In this document: piece by piece, positions 2,122-54,747 of the stretch
How positions within the stretch are numbered: the first letter of the stretch is position 1
Layout of the letters: every line of letters starts with the position of its first letter
Origin: Candidatus Saccharimonadota bacterium
GTDB lineage: Bacteria > Patescibacteriota > Saccharimonadia > Saccharimonadales > JACDBH01
DNA: 64,000 nucleotides
Reading direction: 5' to 3'
NCBI GenBank assembly: GCA_013694995.1
Contig: JACDBH010000001.1
Location: 2,145-66,144 of the forward strand
Notes under the pieces: model-generated
What the model was told of the DNA's origin: nothing
Database searches by the model: none
The model's input: the letters and a program-made list of their open reading frames with translations, nothing else
Position numbers and translations under genes: made by a program

Positions 2122-3267
2122 CTACATTGAAAGGCTAGGGGCTATTTCTAAGCTGTAAGGGTCGGCGGCGGGTTGGCCGAGCTTCATCTTAAATGCGCCT
2201 AAGGTGGCAATCATGGCGCCGTTATCAGTGCAAAGCTTGGGGTCGGCATATTTTATTTCTATCGGTAATCGTTCAGATAGTTGCTTCCGCAGCTCCGGGC
2301 TGGCGGCAACACCGCCGGCAATGACGACCGAGGCAGGGGAGAACTCTTCATAAGCCTGAATGGCTTTATCGACCACAGTTTCGATTGCAACGCGTTGGAA
2401 AACAGCGGCTATATCGGCTTTCTGAGCTTCAGAGAGGGCCTCAGGCAGGTTTTTGGACGGAAATGTGAAGTCTTGCCCTATTAAGCTTTGGGCTTGCCTG
2501 AGGGCAGCTGTTTTGAGACCAGAAAACGAAAAGTCATATTTGCCGTTCATCTTTGCCTTCGGTAAAGAAAAAGCCACCGGATTACCCTCGAGCGCCTTTA
2601 ATCCCACAGATGGGCCACCGGGGTAGGGGAGCCCAATCATTTTGGCAACTTTATCAAAGGCTTCACCGATAGCATCATCTTGGGTCTGGCCCAGCAATAA
2701 GTAATCAAAATGATCCTTAAACAGGGCAAGTTGGCTGTGTCCACCACTGACAATCAGCGCCAAAGCTGGAAATACCGGCTGGGCCGTCGGAACCGAATAG
2801 CTTGCGGAGGTCTGACCTTCGCAAGAAGGGGAAATAGAGGTGATGAAGTTGGAATAAACGTGAGCTTCCACATGATTAATTGCATATAGCGGCTTACTTT
2901 TGGCGATCGCAAGGGTACGGGCGGTCATGACTCCTACAAGTAGCGAACCCCCCAAGCCTGCCCCATAGGTCACTGCAATCCCATCAATATTAGACCATAA
3001 TTCCTCACTTTCCGAGGTCCGTCCTCGGAAAGTTAAGGGAGAGAGGGAAGTTTTCAGAACTTCGTCGATCACGGGTATAATACTTTCGATATGGCTACGG
3101 GCGGCAATTTCCGGCACAACTCCTCCGTACTGGGCATGCAGGTCCATGCTTGACGCAACTACATTGCCAAGCAAAGTGCAGTTTAATCTGTCGTCTATCT
3201 CGACGACAGCTGCAGCAGTCTCGTCGCAGCTAGTTTCTATACCTAAAACCCGTAGCCGTTTATTCAT
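2122..3267 (-). CDS. tsaD: tRNA N6-adenosine threonylcarbamoyltransferase (Kae1/Gcp family)
   Basis: 381 aa with LGIETSCDETAAAVV N-terminus, VSGGHSQL and LCTDNGAMIA motifs. About 40 aa longer than E. coli/B. subtilis TsaD because of internal insertions. Confidence 0.92.
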   Translation of the reverse strand: MNKRLRVLGIETSCDETAAAVVEIDDRLNCTLLGNVVASSMDLHAQYGGVVPEIAARSHIESIIPVIDEVLKTSLSPLTFRGRTSESEELWSNIDGIAVTYGAGLGGSLLVGVMTARTLAIAKSKPLYAINHVEAHVYSNFITSISPSCEGQTSASYSVPTAQPVFPALALIVSGGHSQLALFKDHFDYLLLGQTQDDAIGEAFDKVAKMIGLPYPGGPSVGLKALEGNPVAFSLPKAKMNGKYDFSFSGLKTAALRQAQSLIGQDFTFPSKNLPEALSEAQKADIAAVFQRVAIETVVDKAIQAYEEFSPASVVIAGGVAASPELRKQLSERLPIEIKYADPKLCTDNGAMIATLGAFKMKLGQPAADPYSLEIAPSLSM

Positions 3268-12520: not shown

Positions 12521-12565
12521 GAATTTTAGGGAAATGACACCATTTCCAAATACAAATTAGAGATG

Positions 12566-12596
12566 AAAAAGAGCCAGAGAAGTCTTGGCTCTTTTT
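12566..12596 (+). terminator. intrinsic terminator after groEL
   Basis: AAAAAGAGCCA / TGGCTCTTTTT 11-bp stem with a 9-nt loop, ending in a T-run. Confidence 0.75.
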
Positions 12597-12669
12597 CATC
12601 CATGAAGGATATTCTTGCATAATAATCTAAAATGTAGTATTGTGTATTAATTATAGGAGTTAGTAAGTT

Positions 12670-14991: not shown

Positions 14992-15561
14992 TTACGTCAA
15001 AGTCTGTAGCTCCAGAAACTCTGCTGTGGTTTTAATGTTTTTCTGCAAGACTGCTTTATAAATTTCAGACGATGTTTGACCTTTTTGCTTCTGTCCGCTC
15101 TGCATAAGGTCATACTTGATCTGTAAGATTGCAGACCTTTGTTCACTCGTTGCATTCTGCACAAGATTAGCTATATTATCTTGTGGCAAGTCTTCTGAGA
15201 CCACAAACCACACGTCAATATTCCAGCGTTCGATAGGGAATGGAATTGTGAGCCCTAAGTACAAACCACGCGGTGCGCCGAGATTCGATAACGGTTCAAA
15301 ATTAACTCTGTCAGTGATATTTACGCTGTATGCCCAGGACTGTGAGGCGAAAGTACGGGCAATCTCTGCTCTGATCTCTGGAGTAACAGATCGTACGGCT
15401 ACACCAAAGTCCAGATCGCGATCTACCATAAGGTTATAAGCATAACTACCGTCTAGATTAACCTGGCCAAATTTCGCAAGCAGGTTTTCTAGCTTGGTTT
15501 GGGTAAGTAATTGTTCAGCCTCTTCTTTAATTTTGCGTGAATGTTCAAATGCATGATTCAT
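14992..15561 (-). CDS. nucleotidyltransferase (Pol-beta superfamily) domain protein
   Basis: 189 aa with the G-S-x10-D-x-D pattern (DGSYAYNLMVDRDLDF) and a helical C-terminal half. Confidence 0.5.
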   Translation of the reverse strand: MNHAFEHSRKIKEEAEQLLTQTKLENLLAKFGQVNLDGSYAYNLMVDRDLDFGVAVRSVTPEIRAEIARTFASQSWAYSVNITDRVNFEPLSNLGAPRGLYLGLTIPFPIERWNIDVWFVVSEDLPQDNIANLVQNATSEQRSAILQIKYDLMQSGQKQKGQTSSEIYKAVLQKNIKTTAEFLELQTLT

Positions 15562-15852
15562 GTACGTATCATATCAAAATCCATCCATTCATCATGGATG
15601 TCCCTGGTCTTAGCGGGCAGTTCAAAATGTTACCTGATTTGGGCGGTGTAAACAAACACAATAGACAGCAAGGTGCCAGCCTACAAACTCTACCATGAAA
15701 CTTTGTGGGCCGACTGAAAGGAGTCCACCTTGCGTATTGTGTTTTTTATCACCAGGCCGAGTAAAGCAACATTTTGGCCCGAGGTTTTTGCATACTTTTT
15801 GTCGGGTCAAAAAGTATGGACTTGCTTCTTCGTCTGAAGAAGATTCAAAAGA

Positions 15853-17091
15853 TTATTCGTAGCGCAGTGATTCTATAGGATCTTTGCGTGCTGCTTTGAC
15901 GGCGGGGATTGTACCAAAAATTATGCCCACAATTGCCGATACGCCAACGGCGAGGGCTACAATCTGCCAGGTCACGGCCGGCTGTAGGTCAGTAGTAATC
16001 CGAAGCAGGGCATTGCCAGCTAGAGCCACGATGATTCCGACAATCCCGCCAACGGTGCTAATAACTGCTGCTTCAATTAAGAACTGATGGTAAATTTGCC
16101 GGTTGGTAGCGCCCAAACTCTTACGGACGCCGATTTCGCGTGTTCGCTCGGTAACATTCACGAACATAATATTCATTATTCCGATGCCTCCGACCAGCAG
16201 GGATATGGCAGCGATTCCCGCAACAAAAGATGTGGCAATCGCCACAGTATTTCGGGCTACTATGGCGGTTTCGTTGCCTTTAAGTACTGTAAAATCTTGT
16301 TGATTGCCATGGTTTTTTAGTAGGAGGGCAGTGGTTGCTTCGGCTATTTGCTCAGCCGAAACATCATCTTTTGGGGTAATGAGCAGCTGGAAAATCGGCG
16401 GGTTAGCAGAGGTAATACTTTGAGCCGTCGTGTAGGAGATAAAAATGGCTTTATTGAAATCGGTAACAGCGCTGAGCGGATTAGTTTTGAACTCGTCAAA
16501 AATGCCGCCGACAACAAAATCATGCCCTCTTATCGTGAGTAGTTTGCCCAAAGGAACATTCTCATTAAACAGTTCTTCGGCAACACGCTTGCCGATAATG
16601 GCCACGCGCCGGCTGGACGTCGAGTCTTGGAAAAACCCGCCGTAAACTACTTTTTGATTTATTATTTCCGGTAGTTTAGCAGTTGTTGCGACAACAGTAG
16701 CTTCGGGATAGCTCTCGCCCTCGAAGTTAGTTGCAAGCCCGGAAACCGTACTTAGAGGCACGACCGTGCCCGCGTTTGGTAGTTTGCCGATTGCCTCATA
16801 ATCCTGGTAGGTGAGGGTATTGACACCCAATGAAGCCAGATAATTAACGTCAGTAATAACCCCATCGGCCGACCGCTTGACGATCTGGCCGGAGCGAACT
16901 GTTACCAGGCTGTCATTGGAAGTCTGGTTAGTATCCGCAACCTGGCGTCTAATCCCTTCCCCCAAAGAAATCGTTAAGATAACAGATGAAACCCCGATAA
17001 TTATGCCCACCATAGTTAGTAAACTGCGCAATTTATTGCTGCGGATAGATTGCAGCGCCATGCGAGCGTTGCTGTTGAGTAGTAAGGTCAT
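15853..17091 (-). CDS. ABC transporter permease, MacB/FtsX type
   Basis: 412 aa with an N-terminal TM, a large extracytoplasmic domain and a C-terminal FtsX-type TM bundle. Overlaps the ATPase gene by 4 bp. Confidence 0.85.
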   Translation of the reverse strand: MTLLLNSNARMALQSIRSNKLRSLLTMVGIIIGVSSVILTISLGEGIRRQVADTNQTSNDSLVTVRSGQIVKRSADGVITDVNYLASLGVNTLTYQDYEAIGKLPNAGTVVPLSTVSGLATNFEGESYPEATVVATTAKLPEIINQKVVYGGFFQDSTSSRRVAIIGKRVAEELFNENVPLGKLLTIRGHDFVVGGIFDEFKTNPLSAVTDFNKAIFISYTTAQSITSANPPIFQLLITPKDDVSAEQIAEATTALLLKNHGNQQDFTVLKGNETAIVARNTVAIATSFVAGIAAISLLVGGIGIMNIMFVNVTERTREIGVRKSLGATNRQIYHQFLIEAAVISTVGGIVGIIVALAGNALLRITTDLQPAVTWQIVALAVGVSAIVGIIFGTIPAVKAARKDPIESLRYE

Positions 17092-18075: not shown

Positions 18076-18165
18076 GGAAGGGTCGCATAGTGGCCTAGTG
18101 CGCTGCCTTGGAAAGGCAGTATACCCGCAAGGGTATCGAGGGTTCAAATCCCTCTCCTTCCGCCA
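18076..18165 (+). tRNA. tRNA-Ser (anticodon GGA), CCA encoded
   Basis: Hand-folded cloverleaf. Acceptor GGAAGGG/TCCTTCC; anticodon stem CTGCC/GGCAG with loop TTGGAAA; long variable arm TACCC-GCAA-GGGTA; T arm GAGGG-TTCAAAT-CCCTC; discriminator G plus CCA. Confidence 0.9.
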
Positions 18166-33649: not shown

Positions 33650-34279
33650 TTACGGTACGTTCAAAATGGCAGTTGTACTGCTAAAGCTATCAGAGAGCAA
33701 GTCTTTACTCGTTGGATTGGCCGCAGCATTATAAGCATTTTGGAGGGCTTCAGCGTAGTTGGTGAGCTGTGAGTTGAGTACTTCATTAAATACATCATCG
33801 TAACGGTTATTGCTGGTGGCAGTTTTTAAAGCATCATCGACTTCTGAGTCTTTTTTGCTGGCTAGCTCTTCTTTGGTTAGTACAATTTTATTCTTTTCCA
33901 GGTGGCTTTTTAGGGCAGTTTGCTGGGTCTGGACGCTTAACTTGGCCGTAATCGCAATTGAGCGTGTGTTGCTATCAGCTGCTTTTGCTCCCATATCTGC
34001 AACCCGTATTAGCTCTTGTTGTTGTGCTACTAAAGACTTGAGGTTACCAGCGGCACTTTTGCTGCCGCTGGTAAGGATAGTCGATGCAACGACAAAAAGT
34101 ACCATAAGTAGCACTGCAATTCCGCCGATCAGGAGCAAGCGTGATTTCATTGATCCGCTACCCAATAGTAGAAATGGTTTTTTTGGCGGCTTGGACGGAT
34201 TAGTAATAAAATCATACTGATTATTGCCTGGAGTTGGTTTCGGCTCGTACGACTGGTTATGATTCATAACCATAAGCAT
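33650..34279 (-). CDS. hypothetical single-pass membrane protein (209 aa)
   Basis: Pro-rich N-terminus with QYDFITNP, one TM (LLLIGGIAVLLMVLFVVAS), helical ectodomain. Confidence 0.5.
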   Translation of the reverse strand: MLMVMNHNQSYEPKPTPGNNQYDFITNPSKPPKKPFLLLGSGSMKSRLLLIGGIAVLLMVLFVVASTILTSGSKSAAGNLKSLVAQQQELIRVADMGAKAADSNTRSIAITAKLSVQTQQTALKSHLEKNKIVLTKEELASKKDSEVDDALKTATSNNRYDDVFNEVLNSQLTNYAEALQNAYNAAANPTSKDLLSDSFSSTTAILNVP

Positions 34280-34339
34280 ATCTTATGAGTAGAAAGGTAG
34301 TAAAGTTTATAAAGTAGAAAGTATTCTAAAACAATGGAA

Positions 34340-34415: not shown

Positions 34416-34904
34416 ATGAACGAAGCATTAAATGCCGATCCCTATCATAGCCTTGAAACCAGTCCCGAGTTGGTGGCCAGCGAACAACTCCGCTTAGCCG
34501 ATGAGTGGGCGCGGATATATGGCAATCCAACTGCGGAAGGTCCCGATCGTTCTGCGGAAATAATTTTAAGAAACCCCGCAGTATACCTAAATGATGTGGA
34601 TATGCGAAGATTGCCGGAACATCTTCAGTCAGGATGGAAGAAAACCCTACAATTTGCAGAAGACATTGCCAGGATTGGCGCTACAAAGGATTATGAATGG
34701 AGCACTAGCGCTAACAGCCTGGAAAAAGTGCAAAGCATGGTTTTTTGCGGAGAAATGAACTTACCGGGTTCCGTAAGCGACCTCATGCGTGAGGCAGCCG
34801 GCTTATTTGCGCAGTCAACTAAGTACGATCCAGGCAATACCTCATACTACGCCGGCAATATTCGCGGTGCATCCGGTTGGCTAACTCACGCTACCAATAG
34901 CTAG
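34416..34904 (+). CDS. hypothetical protein (162 aa)
   Basis: ORF with its own consensus promoter; no recognisable domain. Confidence 0.5.
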   Translation: MNEALNADPYHSLETSPELVASEQLRLADEWARIYGNPTAEGPDRSAEIILRNPAVYLNDVDMRRLPEHLQSGWKKTLQFAEDIARIGATKDYEWSTSANSLEKVQSMVFCGEMNLPGSVSDLMREAAGLFAQSTKYDPGNTSYYAGNIRGASGWLTHATNS

Positions 34905-34992
34905 AAACGCTTATACCGTAACCTTAAAATTAGGCTAAGAGCTATGTTCCTAGTGCTTGCTACTTGCTACTTTCTAATTGATACTACCACGC

Positions 34993-51984: not shown

Positions 51985-53580
51985 ATGGATCCCAACCAGA
52001 ACCCAGTCGTAACCAGTCCTAAACAGCAGGTCGCCGAACATGTCCGGCAGGCTGCTAATGTACTAGTTACGGTCCGGTCTAATCCTACAGTAGACGAGCT
52101 TGCAGCAACTATAGGGCTAACCTTGATGCTCAACAAACTGGGCAAGCACGCAACCGCGGTATTCAGCGGTCCAATACCTTCAACCCTGGAATTTCTCAAG
52201 CCCGAAGAAACCCTGGAAACAAATACCAACTCCTTGCGTGATTTCATAGTTTCTTTGGATAAGAGCAAGGCTGACAAACTGCGTTATAAAGTCGAAGAGA
52301 ACGTAGTTAAGATATTTATTACACCCTATAGAACGTCAATAACCCAGGATGATTTGGAATTCAGTCAAGGCGATTTCAATGTCGATGTTGTCATGGCGCT
52401 TGGTGTTACCCAGCGCGAGGAACTAGACCAGGCAATTGTCTCTCATGGCCGGATACTGCATGACGCAACCGTAGTTACTATCACCGCTGGACAACGGGAG
52501 TCGAGTTTGGGCGGCGTCAACTGGCAGGAACCTGCCGCTAGTAGTTTGTGCGAAATGCTGGTCAGTATAAGCGAAGCCTTTCAGGGCGGTCTGATTGATG
52601 CCCAAATTGCAACTGCATTCCTAACCGGTATTGTCGCTGAGACCCAGCGCTTCAGCAATACCAAAACCACTCCGAAAGTTATGACCATGGCGGCACAACT
52701 AATGGCATCCGGCGCTAATCAGCAGCTAATAGCCAATGAACTGCAAAAGGCTGAACCAGACGCGGTTAGTAACCCACTGCCTTTGTTGCCAGTCGAATCT
52801 GTTACTCCGGTTGACTCACAAGACGGAGCTTTATCAATCGAGCATGTCGAGTCAAAGGCCGTGGAAGAAAATCCGGAGCAACCAGAAGAGCTGCCAGCTT
52901 TACCAGAGGCAGGAGTTTCTTTAGAAGAACCCGAACCAGTTGCTGAAACCCCACTTGCTGCCGAACAGCCATCGTTTGGTTCGATTTTACCGCCTCCGCC
53001 TGTTTTAGACGTACCCGAGCCTAATAATTCAGATCAAATACACATTGATCCAGACGGCAATATAATGCCCTCCAACCAGTCAATGGCAACCCGTCACAAG
53101 GTCATTGAACCTTTAGAGCAAGCAGCAGCGCCGATATTGCCTGACTCGGGAGCGACTGTCACGTCGGCTCCATTCTCAGCTTTTGATACAGGCAACTCAC
53201 CGAGTACACCCGTAGAATCGCCTGCAGTTAATTCGGAACCGGCGGCCATGCTACCGACTGTCGCCGAGCCTACTGATACACCTGAACCGCAAGGTCCTAA
53301 TACATTGCTTGATATAGAAAAATCAGTCCATAGCCCCCATGTAGAGCAGGTAGCTGCGTCTGATGGTGGAGTTGATATGGCCCGGAGTGCGGTCATGGAT
53401 GCTATAACCCAGGCACCGTATGATCCGACCAGGCCTGATCCACGTGCTGATATCAATGCTCAGCCTATGGGTATGCCACCTGATCCCTTAGCGCAGCTTA
53501 CGCAGTCCGCACCCCCGCAGCAGGTCAGTGATGACTTATCGGCACCACCACCCGTGCCACCACCACTGATGCCCCAGTAG
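51985..53580 (+). CDS. DHH-family-like protein with degenerate catalytic motifs and a long Pro-rich C-terminal region
   Basis: The N-terminal ~250 aa follow the NrnA/DHH layout, but the DxD and DHH positions are substituted (RSNPTVDELAAT; ETQRFSN instead of DTGxF). The C-terminal ~280 aa are low-complexity Pro/Ala/Ser/Glu. Confidence 0.45.
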   Translation: MDPNQNPVVTSPKQQVAEHVRQAANVLVTVRSNPTVDELAATIGLTLMLNKLGKHATAVFSGPIPSTLEFLKPEETLETNTNSLRDFIVSLDKSKADKLRYKVEENVVKIFITPYRTSITQDDLEFSQGDFNVDVVMALGVTQREELDQAIVSHGRILHDATVVTITAGQRESSLGGVNWQEPAASSLCEMLVSISEAFQGGLIDAQIATAFLTGIVAETQRFSNTKTTPKVMTMAAQLMASGANQQLIANELQKAEPDAVSNPLPLLPVESVTPVDSQDGALSIEHVESKAVEENPEQPEELPALPEAGVSLEEPEPVAETPLAAEQPSFGSILPPPPVLDVPEPNNSDQIHIDPDGNIMPSNQSMATRHKVIEPLEQAAAPILPDSGATVTSAPFSAFDTGNSPSTPVESPAVNSEPAAMLPTVAEPTDTPEPQGPNTLLDIEKSVHSPHVEQVAASDGGVDMARSAVMDAITQAPYDPTRPDPRADINAQPMGMPPDPLAQLTQSAPPQQVSDDLSAPPPVPPPLMPQ

Positions 53581-53617
53581 TAGCCAACTTATCTCATCTT
53601 CTATATACTCCTGACCG

Positions 53618-54364
53618 ATGGATGGCATTCTACTTATTGATAAACCCGAGGGCTGGACGTCTTTTGACGTGGTGGCCAAAGTTCGCGGCCTGCTTCGGCA
53701 GGCCGCCAGTGAAAAGTTGAAAGTTGAAAGTGAAAAGTATGAAGCACCTTTTAACTTTAAGAACTTGCAACTTTCTACTCGCGCACCAAAGGTGCGCGTG
53801 GGGCATACGGGAACCTTAGATCCGCTTGCAACAGGGTTACTTGTGATTGTTGTAGGCAGTTATTGCAAGCGCGCACAGGAATTCTCTAAGTTGGACAAGG
53901 TTTATGAAGTTACTATGAAACTCGGGCAAACTAGCACAACCGGAGACGAGGAAGGTGTGAAGACAATAACTAGTAACCAGGAACCAGAAACTAGGGAAAT
54001 CGAGGCAGCTTTAGAGAAATTCAGTGGCGAAATCATGCAAACACCACCCATTTACAGCGCCATTAAGGTTAACGGCCAGCGGGCTTATAAACTCGCTCGA
54101 GAGGGGAAAGAAGTCAAGCTCGAACCTCGGAAAGTAACTATTTATAATATTCAGCTGACAGATTACAGTTATTCAGAAGTAAAATTCACTGCCAAGGTTA
54201 GTAGCGGAACGTACATTCGATCATTGGTAGAAGATATAGGCAAAGAACTCGGCACTGGAGCATATATGAGCGGTCTGTGTCGAACAGAGGTAGGTGTCTT
54301 TTCTATAAAAAATGCTAACCCGGTGCAGGGAGTAGACATCACGAGGCATGTATTTGACATATAA
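53618..54364 (+). CDS. truB: tRNA pseudouridine(55) synthase
   Basis: GILLIDKPEGWTSFDVV and RVGHTGTLDPLATGLLVIVVG (catalytic Asp), separated by a ~29-aa insertion absent from E. coli/B. subtilis TruB. Confidence 0.9.
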   Translation: MDGILLIDKPEGWTSFDVVAKVRGLLRQAASEKLKVESEKYEAPFNFKNLQLSTRAPKVRVGHTGTLDPLATGLLVIVVGSYCKRAQEFSKLDKVYEVTMKLGQTSTTGDEEGVKTITSNQEPETREIEAALEKFSGEIMQTPPIYSAIKVNGQRAYKLAREGKEVKLEPRKVTIYNIQLTDYSYSEVKFTAKVSSGTYIRSLVEDIGKELGTGAYMSGLCRTEVGVFSIKNANPVQGVDITRHVFDI

Positions 54365-54382
54365 TAGCAAGGGTTATATAAT
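54354..54382 (+). promoter_or_regulatory. perfect consensus sigma70 promoter TTGACA-17-TATAAT
   Basis: TTGACA 54354-54359, 17-nt spacer, TATAAT 54377-54382. Overlaps the truB stop; ATG 54391 lies 8 nt downstream. Confidence 0.7.
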
Positions 54383-54390
54383 GTATGTAC

Positions 54391-54747
54391 ATGTGGAATA
54401 ATAAAGAGCGACCTGAGTTAGTAAAGCGAGCAATTTATACTAGGCGAAATGAAGTAGCTATACACGAATCCAGAGCTACGATTAATAGAGTACTTGCGGC
54501 GATTAATCTAGGTGCTGCAGTTATGGAAGGGTCGATCGTATTGCAAAATGTCGTGGAGCACAAAGGTGGTCTTAATCTTTTTGTGTCCGTAGGGCTTACA
54601 GGGCTTTCTTCAGGCGTCTCTGCTTACACATTTAGCCGTGCCGCGAGCGAGTCTAGAACTGCTGAAACATTTAGGGCTCAGCAGCTACAACTTGAAGACG
54701 CTGTACTATTACAGCAAACTCATGTCTCATCCAATGAATCTCTGTAG
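54391..54747 (+). CDS. hypothetical membrane protein (~118 aa)
   Basis: ORF with two hydrophobic segments. Start set at ATG 54391 because ATG 54385 lies only 2 nt after the -10 box. Confidence 0.45.
   Translation: MWNNKERPELVKRAIYTRRNEVAIHESRATINRVLAAINLGAAVMEGSIVLQNVVEHKGGLNLFVSVGLTGLSSGVSAYTFSRAASESRTAETFRAQQLQLEDAVLLQQTHVSSNESL

Follow-up and report, generated by a model that had tools for sequence, protein, structure and literature searches.

The truB gene (tRNA pseudouridine-55 synthase) of a Candidatus Saccharibacteria bacterium, encoded on the 64-kb stretch of DNA analysed here (the window), contains at positions 53685-53798 a translated segment that reads as three consecutive hairpins. 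On a slight balance of probability, we regard this segment as an in-frame palindromic insertion cassette that behaves like the Rickettsia palindromic elements (RPEs), is tolerated in a surface loop of TruB and spreads between lineages and between genes. The likeness to RPEs is functional and is not one of family membership. The features held in common are a stable palindromic hairpin and an in-frame peptide insert that leaves the fold undisrupted, the core of the protein being predicted with high confidence by AlphaFold2. An in-frame structured element resembling RPEs had been proposed in an earlier note on this DNA, made from the sequence alone, and is supported here by the polymorphism of the insert, its palindromic relatives, a recoding test and in-frame cassettes elsewhere. 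The product of the host gene matches, with 100% identity, an NCBI protein of a Candidatus Saccharibacteria bacterium that bears the name TruB, and it contains the Pfam domains TruB_N (match starting at residue 60) and TruB_C_2. The gene and the parts of the cassette are as follows.

53618..54364, + strand: truB (tRNA pseudouridine-55 synthase), 248 aa, host of the cassette; open reading frame (ORF), Pfam and matches to TruB structures in the PDB.

53685..53798, + strand: candidate in-frame palindromic cassette of three consecutive hairpins, encoding approximately residues 24-60 in place of the short alpha1-beta2 loop; fold z, recoding z and absence from 41 of 120 homologues.

53685..53706, + strand: hairpin i, GCGGCCTGC-TTCG-GCAGGCCGC, GC-rich, 9 perfect pairs, UUCG loop, encoding (R)GLLRQAA; read in the sequence.

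53708..53779, + strand: hairpin ii, long, imperfect and AT-rich, with a 10-nt loop; 26 pairs by RNAfold, 22 of them within 53713-53774.

53708-53738, + strand: 5' arm of hairpin ii, a (GAAAGTT)-like heptanucleotide array of period 7 with 4.4 copies; Tandem Repeats Finder (TRF).

53745-53779, + strand: 3' arm of hairpin ii, the pyrimidine-rich inverted complement of the 5' arm; read in the sequence.

53780..53798, + strand: hairpin iii, CGCGCACC-AAA-GGTGCGCG, GC-rich, 8 perfect pairs, encoding RAPKVR(V) and ending 2 nt before the GHTGTLD codons; sequence and covariation.

53801..53821, + strand: GHTGTLD codons of the catalytic motif (His63, Asp68), directly downstream of the cassette; translation, with columns invariant in both homologue alignments.

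The three hairpins lie where the earlier note had placed them, and the 9-bp, the imperfect AT-rich and the 8-bp stem can all be read in the sequence. Its hand count of 22 pairs in the central stem agrees with RNAfold, and the GAAAGTT-like heptamer that it saw repeated four times is recovered by TRF. In hairpins i and iii, one arm consists of near-native codons and the other is its inverted complement; the near-native arm is the 5' arm in hairpin i (RGLL) and encodes KVRV in hairpin iii. Hairpin ii is a (GAAAGTY)n heptanucleotide array joined to its inverted complement, and the cassette also counts as a long simple sequence repeat, its tandem 7-nt array being longer than chance. Folded as RNA, the 114 nt of the cassette reach a minimum free energy of -51.7 kcal/mol versus -28.5 +/- 3.3 kcal/mol in 200 dinucleotide shuffles (z -6.98; 0 of 200 equally stable). 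None of 200 synonymous recodings of the same peptide, drawn from the codon usage of truB itself, was equally stable either (z -5.67). The proposal of the earlier note had been tied to a fold more stable than codon-shuffled controls; the fold is far more stable, and the proposal therefore stands on this point.

At the protein level the insert amounts to 34 residues (26-59), compared with 4 in the TruB proteins of Mycobacterium tuberculosis and Escherichia coli, whose PDB structures align by HMMER to residues 2/3-25 of the query and from residue 60 on. This bears out the in-frame insert of about 29 aa that had been noted at a site with 3-4 canonical residues. Relative to the nearest insert-less TruBs of Saccharibacteria the excess is 24 residues, with a spacing between DKP and GHTG of 54 versus 30 residues. 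The AlphaFold2 model, built with 64 homologues, has a mean predicted local distance difference test (pLDDT) score of 89. Helix alpha1 spans residues 15-40 of the model and the peptide encoded by the 5' arm therefore extends the native helix. Residues 41-60, directly followed by the catalytic motif, have block-mean pLDDT values of 64-75 and are coil according to DSSP except for a short helical turn at residues 47-49. The cassette is modelled as a surface protrusion adjoining the RNA-binding cleft, a helix extension and surface loop on a core of high pLDDT.

Among the 120 best TruB homologues of the window protein, 41 have a short loop, with 29-32 residues between DKPxGxTS and GHTGTLD (29-30 in 35 of the 41; e.g. 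...RQETGLKKPKV...), and 79 carry inserts of very different sequence at the same loop, with a spacing of 35-87 residues. In more distant bacteria the spacing is 23-24 residues. The presence/absence polymorphism within the lineage that the earlier note had named as a test is thereby confirmed. Outside the insert, the window TruB is 78.6% identical to the insert-less homologue P0025 and likewise 78.6% identical to the insert-bearing homologue P0004; the two states are interleaved, and mean identity does not distinguish pairs within a class from pairs between the classes (71.5%, 68.3% and 69.2%). By this comparison the segment is, to all appearances, a cassette and not an old conserved feature. 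Short-loop sequences such as ETGLKKPKV and EGKKPKNxKV recur among insert-less relatives, and the short loop is therefore most simply regarded as ancestral; the cassette state looks derived and would have been acquired more than once. All 79 insert-bearing homologues, a set biased by gene calling, keep an open frame and have lengths divisible by three.

DNA was compared for 24 insert-bearing truB genes and 10 insert-less close relatives. Most of the 24 contain a central hairpin with a purine-rich 5' arm of approximately 7-nt units (GAAAGTT, GAGAATC, GGAAATA, GAGTTAA and others) and a pyrimidine-rich complementary 3' arm, followed by a small hairpin over the codons directly before GHTG; the loops are not conserved. 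The inserts of the relatives are hence palindromic with other sequences, rather than divergent and non-palindromic, the outcome that the earlier note had set against its own proposal. Compared with synonymous recodings, the mean z of the 24 inserts was -1.9, with z < -2 in 10 of them. At the same site the 10 insert-less relatives showed no excess structure (mean z ~0), so that the presence of all three hairpins goes with that of the insert.

Hairpin iii was the only one that could be scored for covariation, the RNAalifold alignment of the long hairpin being unreliable owing to heptamer register slippage. In a gap-free alignment of 16 heptamer-type cassettes, 15 of them distinct, 82.5% of its cells were paired, versus 29-50% with a slid partner, and changes on both sides occurred in six of its eight pairs. 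Its covariation score of 0.344, versus 0.159, was reached in 0 of 500 shuffles. Pairing is kept despite changes in the encoded peptide (SPKVK, SAKPK, RAPKVR, LPKVK), which shows a covariation that overrides amino-acid identity. A comparison of the two strands is ambiguous and gives no consistent signal: of the 16 heptamer-type inserts, 15 have the better fold on the antisense strand, yet hairpin iii relies on G-U pairs of the sense strand. The A·C mismatches can also be explained at the protein level, by selection for T-to-C changes (Ser/Thr/Pro replacing Phe/Leu).

A subgroup of the homologues has inserts homologous to that of the window ('SEKLKVES...LST..PKVKV'), and in these the cassette and its host gene can be compared directly. 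The cassette DNA of the window is 86% identical to that of locus L162, versus ~61% for the remaining truB, and 80% identical to that of L161, versus 71% for the remaining truB. The 19 nt of hairpin iii are identical between the window and L162. Outside the insert, the L162 protein is only 63.6% identical to the window protein, below the insert-less TruBs at 74-79%. The nearest TruBs of L162 (L009/L088, 70%) and of another locus, L004 (L021, 76%), are insert-less. In a three-way alignment of the window, L161 and L162, 27 of the 28 positions of the 5' arm of hairpin ii are invariant, all third codon positions included, whereas the conserved protein motifs flanking the cassette display ordinary third-position variation. 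Where the residues are identical, the codons agree as well in 57% of cases within the cassette, versus 36% outside it (window versus L162: 25/30 inside, 43/125 outside). Where the three sequences differ in the 3' arm of hairpin ii, the differences are uncompensated. Relative to L161, hairpin i of the window was perfected by one-sided changes and one paired change and has gained its UUCG loop; the substitutions are mostly synonymous or paired and strengthen the stem.

Since the cassette DNA is more conserved than the host gene and the nearest relatives are insert-less, the comparison argues for a probable lateral spread rather than simple vertical descent. It also argues that homologous cassettes were acquired, as far as the TruB comparison reaches, in at least three subclades, each nearest to TruBs without the cassette. 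Constraint at the nucleotide level is evident from the conservation of synonymous sites and from the covariation; its source may be selection on the hairpin, templated correction or recent common origin of the copies.

Related sequences occur in other genes. The TsaD homologues of the clade range from 353 to 457 residues and possess three hypervariable hot spots of in-frame insertion. Some of their inserts resemble the truB cassette of the window type (e.g. 'DSKKSKVESRKYSALP...'), and their DNA contains (GAAAGTC)3. On contig L171, in-frame (GAAAGTC)n arrays encoding SKVES-like peptides are found in the genes for a Mur ligase and for TsaD, ~1.5 kb apart; the peptides are, respectively, 'KSQKSKVES' and 'SKKSKVESRK'.

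L171 499-529, - strand: (GAAAGTC)n array in the Mur ligase gene.

L171 2025-2108: (GAAAGTC)n array in tsaD.

Behind the (GAAAGTC)n array in the tsaD gene of L171 comes a (CTCTGMC)n array that is not complementary to it; hence not every insert of this type is a hairpin.

A second family in Saccharibacteria consists of a long-hairpin element of ~165 nt that encodes the conserved peptide LDxxQGAxE..TQQSAK..GFAxRQAxAxR.

L169 702-865: copy in truB.

L099 1673-1837: copy in truB.

L172 10801-10967: copy in tsaD.

The truB copies (L169, L099) and the tsaD copy (L172) match one another with a local DNA score of 64, versus a shuffle maximum of 30, and with nhmmer E-values of 1e-28 to 1e-43. A second site in tsaD also carries the element, and it occurs free-standing too, in ORFs of 58-67 aa (P0241-P0245); a profile search with its peptide brought up five small ORFs only, the host proteins not being among the matches. 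The copies in truB, tsaD and free-standing ORFs are distributed across genomes. This family provides good evidence for the movement of in-frame palindromic elements between genes in the clade.

A plausible course of events can be outlined for the truB cassette. It would have taken the place of the short loop that leads from helix alpha1 to the catalytic GHTGTLD strand, as a long AT-rich heptamer-array hairpin set between two short GC-rich hairpins, each of the latter presumably made from one near-native arm and an inverted copy of it. Origin and growth could be explained by heptamer slippage and intrastrand template switching (inverted duplication and quasi-palindrome correction), processes that, we infer, created or perfected the hairpins. 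Such a segment would survive only if it is in frame, free of stops and placed on a permissive surface loop. It may then have spread between Saccharibacteria lineages and between genes, and its history would thus differ from that of the host gene. The route could be a transposition-like movement, or a short-patch recombination in which the two conserved TruB motifs flanking the cassette serve as homology arms. In the protein, the cassette would be read as an extension of helix alpha1 and a loosely ordered return loop. The cassette is most likely neutral or selfish DNA, its neutrality being what we infer, and not part of TruB catalysis.

Several observations weigh against a mobile cassette. No second copy of any cassette arm was found within the 64-kb window, and neither a transposase nor terminal inverted repeats nor a target-site duplication could be identified for the cassette. 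Its link to the arrays in TsaD and the Mur ligase runs through short repeats with nhmmer E-values of only 0.0015 and 0.006, for which convergence by slippage is possible. The argument from distribution rests on a 205-column neighbour-joining tree of TruB and on pairwise identities, not on a genome phylogeny. Synonymous-site conservation and covariation, moreover, are also expected from a selected RNA structure. A cis-acting structure in the mRNA (or an antisense RNA), tuning truB/rpsO-pnp expression, mRNA stability or ribosome pausing and with the peptide as a tolerated by-product, would account for a fold far above its synonymous recodings in stability, for the higher conservation of synonymous sites inside the cassette than outside, for the covarying hairpin iii and for the hairpin i that gained a UUCG loop and was strengthened relative to L161 mostly by synonymous or paired changes. 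We nevertheless consider it unlikely. The nearest relatives lack the cassette, which is patchy across subclades; only 10 of the 24 inserts of relatives have z < -2 against recoding; and the 3' arm of hairpin ii changes without compensation in the window, L161 and L162 opposite an invariant 5' arm. Strand signal is inconsistent (antisense better in 15 of 16, sense G-U pairs in hairpin iii), no Rfam family, terminator, tRNA-like fold or closing stem was detected, and similar cassettes occur in unrelated genes. The mRNA structure retained for regulation that had been offered as an alternative in the earlier note is thus weakened by the patchy distribution and the uncompensated 3' arm; what stands of it is the nucleotide-level constraint and the covariation.

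The patchy distribution is hard to reconcile with either a required regulatory structure or a required protein arm. The latter, a Lys/Glu-rich helical arm that contacts tRNA or a partner and whose palindromic DNA is a trace of the insert's origin, would agree with the open frame in all 79 insert-bearing homologues, with the ordered alpha1 extension to residue 40 and with a site directly upstream of GHTGTLD, the His of which we take to be the RNA-intercalating, T-loop-binding residue seen in the E. coli TruB-RNA complex, and the Asp the catalytic one. An adaptive role of this kind is nonetheless quite improbable: the inserts, which are missing in equally close relatives, are hypervariable (spacing 35-87), the return loop is predicted with no more than moderate confidence (block-mean pLDDT 64-75), and neither synonymous-site conservation nor amino-acid-changing covariation is expected from protein selection alone. 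A purely local mutational by-product, in which heptamer slippage and quasi-palindrome template switching acted independently in each lineage without mobility or lateral transfer, also has a low probability in our view. It would be in line with the strong excess of period-7 arrays, some of them with 100% identical copies (L108, L126), with the perfect palindromes, unique and to all appearances young, that the window has in tsaD and in a hypothetical ORF (see below), and with a slippage bias towards 7 nt, as proposed in PMC4679880. It cannot, however, yield cassettes with 86% identical DNA and the same 19-nt hairpin iii in host genes that are ~61% identical, nor a non-repetitive ~165-nt element common to truB and tsaD. 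The insertion cassette with lateral spread remains the reading that we prefer. A broader version is that Saccharibacteria, within the Candidate Phyla Radiation (CPR), harbour undescribed translated palindromic cassettes that move between lineages and between TruB, TsaD and Mur ligase into loops by catalytic motifs, and that the hairpin, kept by covariation even where amino acids change as a result, is the functional unit either of the element's propagation (for example by hairpin-guided insertion, homing or motif-armed recombination) or of an RNA-level function in the host. This we put forward only tentatively, as a possibility with the odds against it.

A number of known element types were considered for 53685-53798 and set aside. 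A classical MITE (miniature inverted-repeat transposable element) does not fit, as hairpins i and iii have outer arms that do not complement each other and no flanking direct repeat was reported. A repetitive extragenic palindrome (REP) or bacterial interspersed mosaic element (BIME) associated with a REP-associated tyrosine transposase (RAYT) was rejected on the grounds that the cassette is intragenic, no GTAG or CGTC abuts either GC-rich hairpin and each of these hairpins is single-copy in the window. An intrinsic terminator or attenuator is not indicated, with no T run and no terminator-like sites on either strand of 53300-54500. A tRNA-like element had no ARAGORN match, and a 181-nt fold contained neither a closing stem nor a cloverleaf. 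The loops (UUCG, 10-nt, AAA) do not match the 7-nt UUCRANY on a 5-bp stem expected of a T-arm mimic for TruB autoregulation. A translational bypass element is ruled against by the always-open frame in the 79 homologues, given the bias of that set by gene calling. The named RPE families were excluded, the host being Candidatus Saccharibacteria and not of the genus Rickettsia. A known RNA family was likewise excluded: the only Rfam 15 match in the window is a tRNA at 18076-18162, and the related elements in L099, L169, L171 and L172 had no Rfam match. The 30-aa insert peptide had 0 matches among 1.84 billion representative proteins, a query too short to be informative. In a blastn search against phage genomes, the ~165-nt element had no match and the cassette one weak match. 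No description of such elements in Saccharibacteria was found in the literature searched.

The repeat background of the window and of related loci provides a context for these elements. The window contains 5 perfect stems of 11 bp or more versus 0.08 expected (60-fold), and two of them lie in coding sequence. These two hairpins and a further period-7 array within truB are listed here.

3007-3033, - strand: 11-bp perfect hairpin in the tsaD ORF 2122-3267, ACTTTCCGAGG-ACGGA-CCTCGGAAAGT, encoding TFRGRTSES; hairpin scan.

34044-34074, - strand: 12-bp perfect hairpin in the hypothetical ORF 33650-34279, TTACCAGCGGCA-GCAAAAG-TGCCGCTGGTAA; hairpin scan.

53975..53995, + strand: second short period-7 array in truB (AACCAGG x3), in a surface region that is variable among homologues in two alignments; TRF.

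The tsaD hairpin sits in an extra segment that is absent from the other 119 TsaD homologues and looks like a young in-frame inverted duplication. The hairpin at 34044-34074 comes directly behind a segment predicted to be hydrophobic. Across 579 kb of Saccharibacteria loci (the window, L001-L067 and L081-L172), 53 period-7 tandem arrays with at least 3 copies were counted versus 0.8 expected, an excess that stems partly from the truB inserts as most loci were chosen around truB. Period 7 dominates the non-triplet classes, with period 5 giving 3 arrays and period 8 giving 5. Some arrays consist of 100% identical tandem copies (e.g. L108 and L126, by TRF), which suggests ongoing slippage. Many period-7 arrays are located directly upstream of truB or in variable protein loops, and their heptamers differ by lineage. 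According to PMC4679880 (citing Mrazek 2007) and PMC4692102, heptanucleotide repeats are the commonest class of long simple repeats in bacteria, and polymerase slippage has been proposed as their cause.

Heptamer arrays are also found outside truB and tsaD. In the window, (AGTAGAA)n at 34288-34323 and (CTTGCTA)n at 34956-34985 form roughly inverted arrays around an unannotated ORF of 162 aa (34416-34904), and the (AGTAGAA)n array is directly upstream of a promoter-like site, TTGACA-17-TATACA. Viral contigs scanned for (GAAAGTY)3 contained it at 69 loci, which were for the most part direct arrays of an unrelated kind. Two IMG/VR contigs, L217 (3300007142_000090) and L223 (3300042269_000678), contain repeated intergenic (GTTGAAA)n arrays followed by (TTTCAAC)n inverted arrays, in three copies within 3.4 kb on L217 and in two copies ~700 nt apart, flanking a short coding stretch, on L223. 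Their heptamer is the same as that of hairpin ii in the window.

Downstream of truB there is a small hypothetical ORF followed by rpsO and pnp, which make up the usual neighbourhood of truB. Upstream, 51985-53580 encodes a 531-aa protein without a Pfam match; its C-terminal half is long, Pro/Ser/Glu-rich and of low complexity, and its homologues elsewhere differ greatly in length. Two other structured sites were observed in the window. The intergenic region 15561-15853 contains a long stable hairpin (15640-15760, - strand; -45.7 kcal/mol over 121 nt) without an Rfam match, and a 15-bp perfect terminator-like stem is located at 12562-12600.

If confirmed genome-wide, the cassettes would extend selfish DNA within protein-coding genes from Rickettsia, from which translated palindromic elements within genes are best known so far, to the CPR and to another architecture. 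They would offer a concrete mechanism for the many lineage-specific insertions in CPR proteins and a warning against assuming that such inserts are adaptive. The annotation of CPR marker genes and their phylogenetics would be affected because the cassette regions differ in history from their host genes. The cassettes may also offer a natural setting in which to study the origin, perfection and tolerance of palindromes and non-triplet repeats in essential genes of highly reduced genomes.

Quasi-palindrome template-switch mutagenesis is a mutational mechanism and not an element. It would explain the one-sided stem 'corrections' and why hairpins i and iii and the tsaD hairpin contain adjacent native sequence copied in inverted form, but it fails to explain cassette sequences common to divergent hosts. 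MITEs are characterized by terminal inverted repeats and target-site duplications. The cassette is similar to MITEs and to REP/REPIN sequences in being small, non-autonomous and hairpin-forming, and in-frame fusions are formed by some MITEs (PMC10969869). REPs lie outside genes and have a GTAG or CGTC tag (PMC3733652). The dominance of tandem 7-nt units is a likeness to described heptanucleotide repeats, such as the cyanobacterial tandem repeats, TAACTGA of Beggiatoaceae and GGGNATC of Xanthomonas and Nostoc (PMC4679880, PMC4692102). The described repeats are mostly intergenic direct arrays, whereas those reported here lie in frame within essential genes together with an inverted complementary array. 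RPEs are short hairpin-forming palindromes that reside in frame in unrelated housekeeping genes, are translated and compatible with the protein fold, and comprise several families, each with a conserved peptide (PMC10969869). Both the truB cassette of the window and the ~165-nt element common to truB, tsaD and free-standing ORFs resemble them. RPEs are dispersed in multiple copies; here a single copy was found in the 64-kb window and related arrays in two genes of L171. The host belongs to another phylum, and the window cassette has ~110 nt rather than ~150 bp, with heptanucleotide arrays and three hairpins. Its distribution suggests spread between lineages at one homologous site, and it is likened to RPEs by behaviour, not by sequence. 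What is new is the architecture, heptamer-array hairpins flanked by two short GC-rich hairpins, and its occurrence in a new lineage, the CPR.

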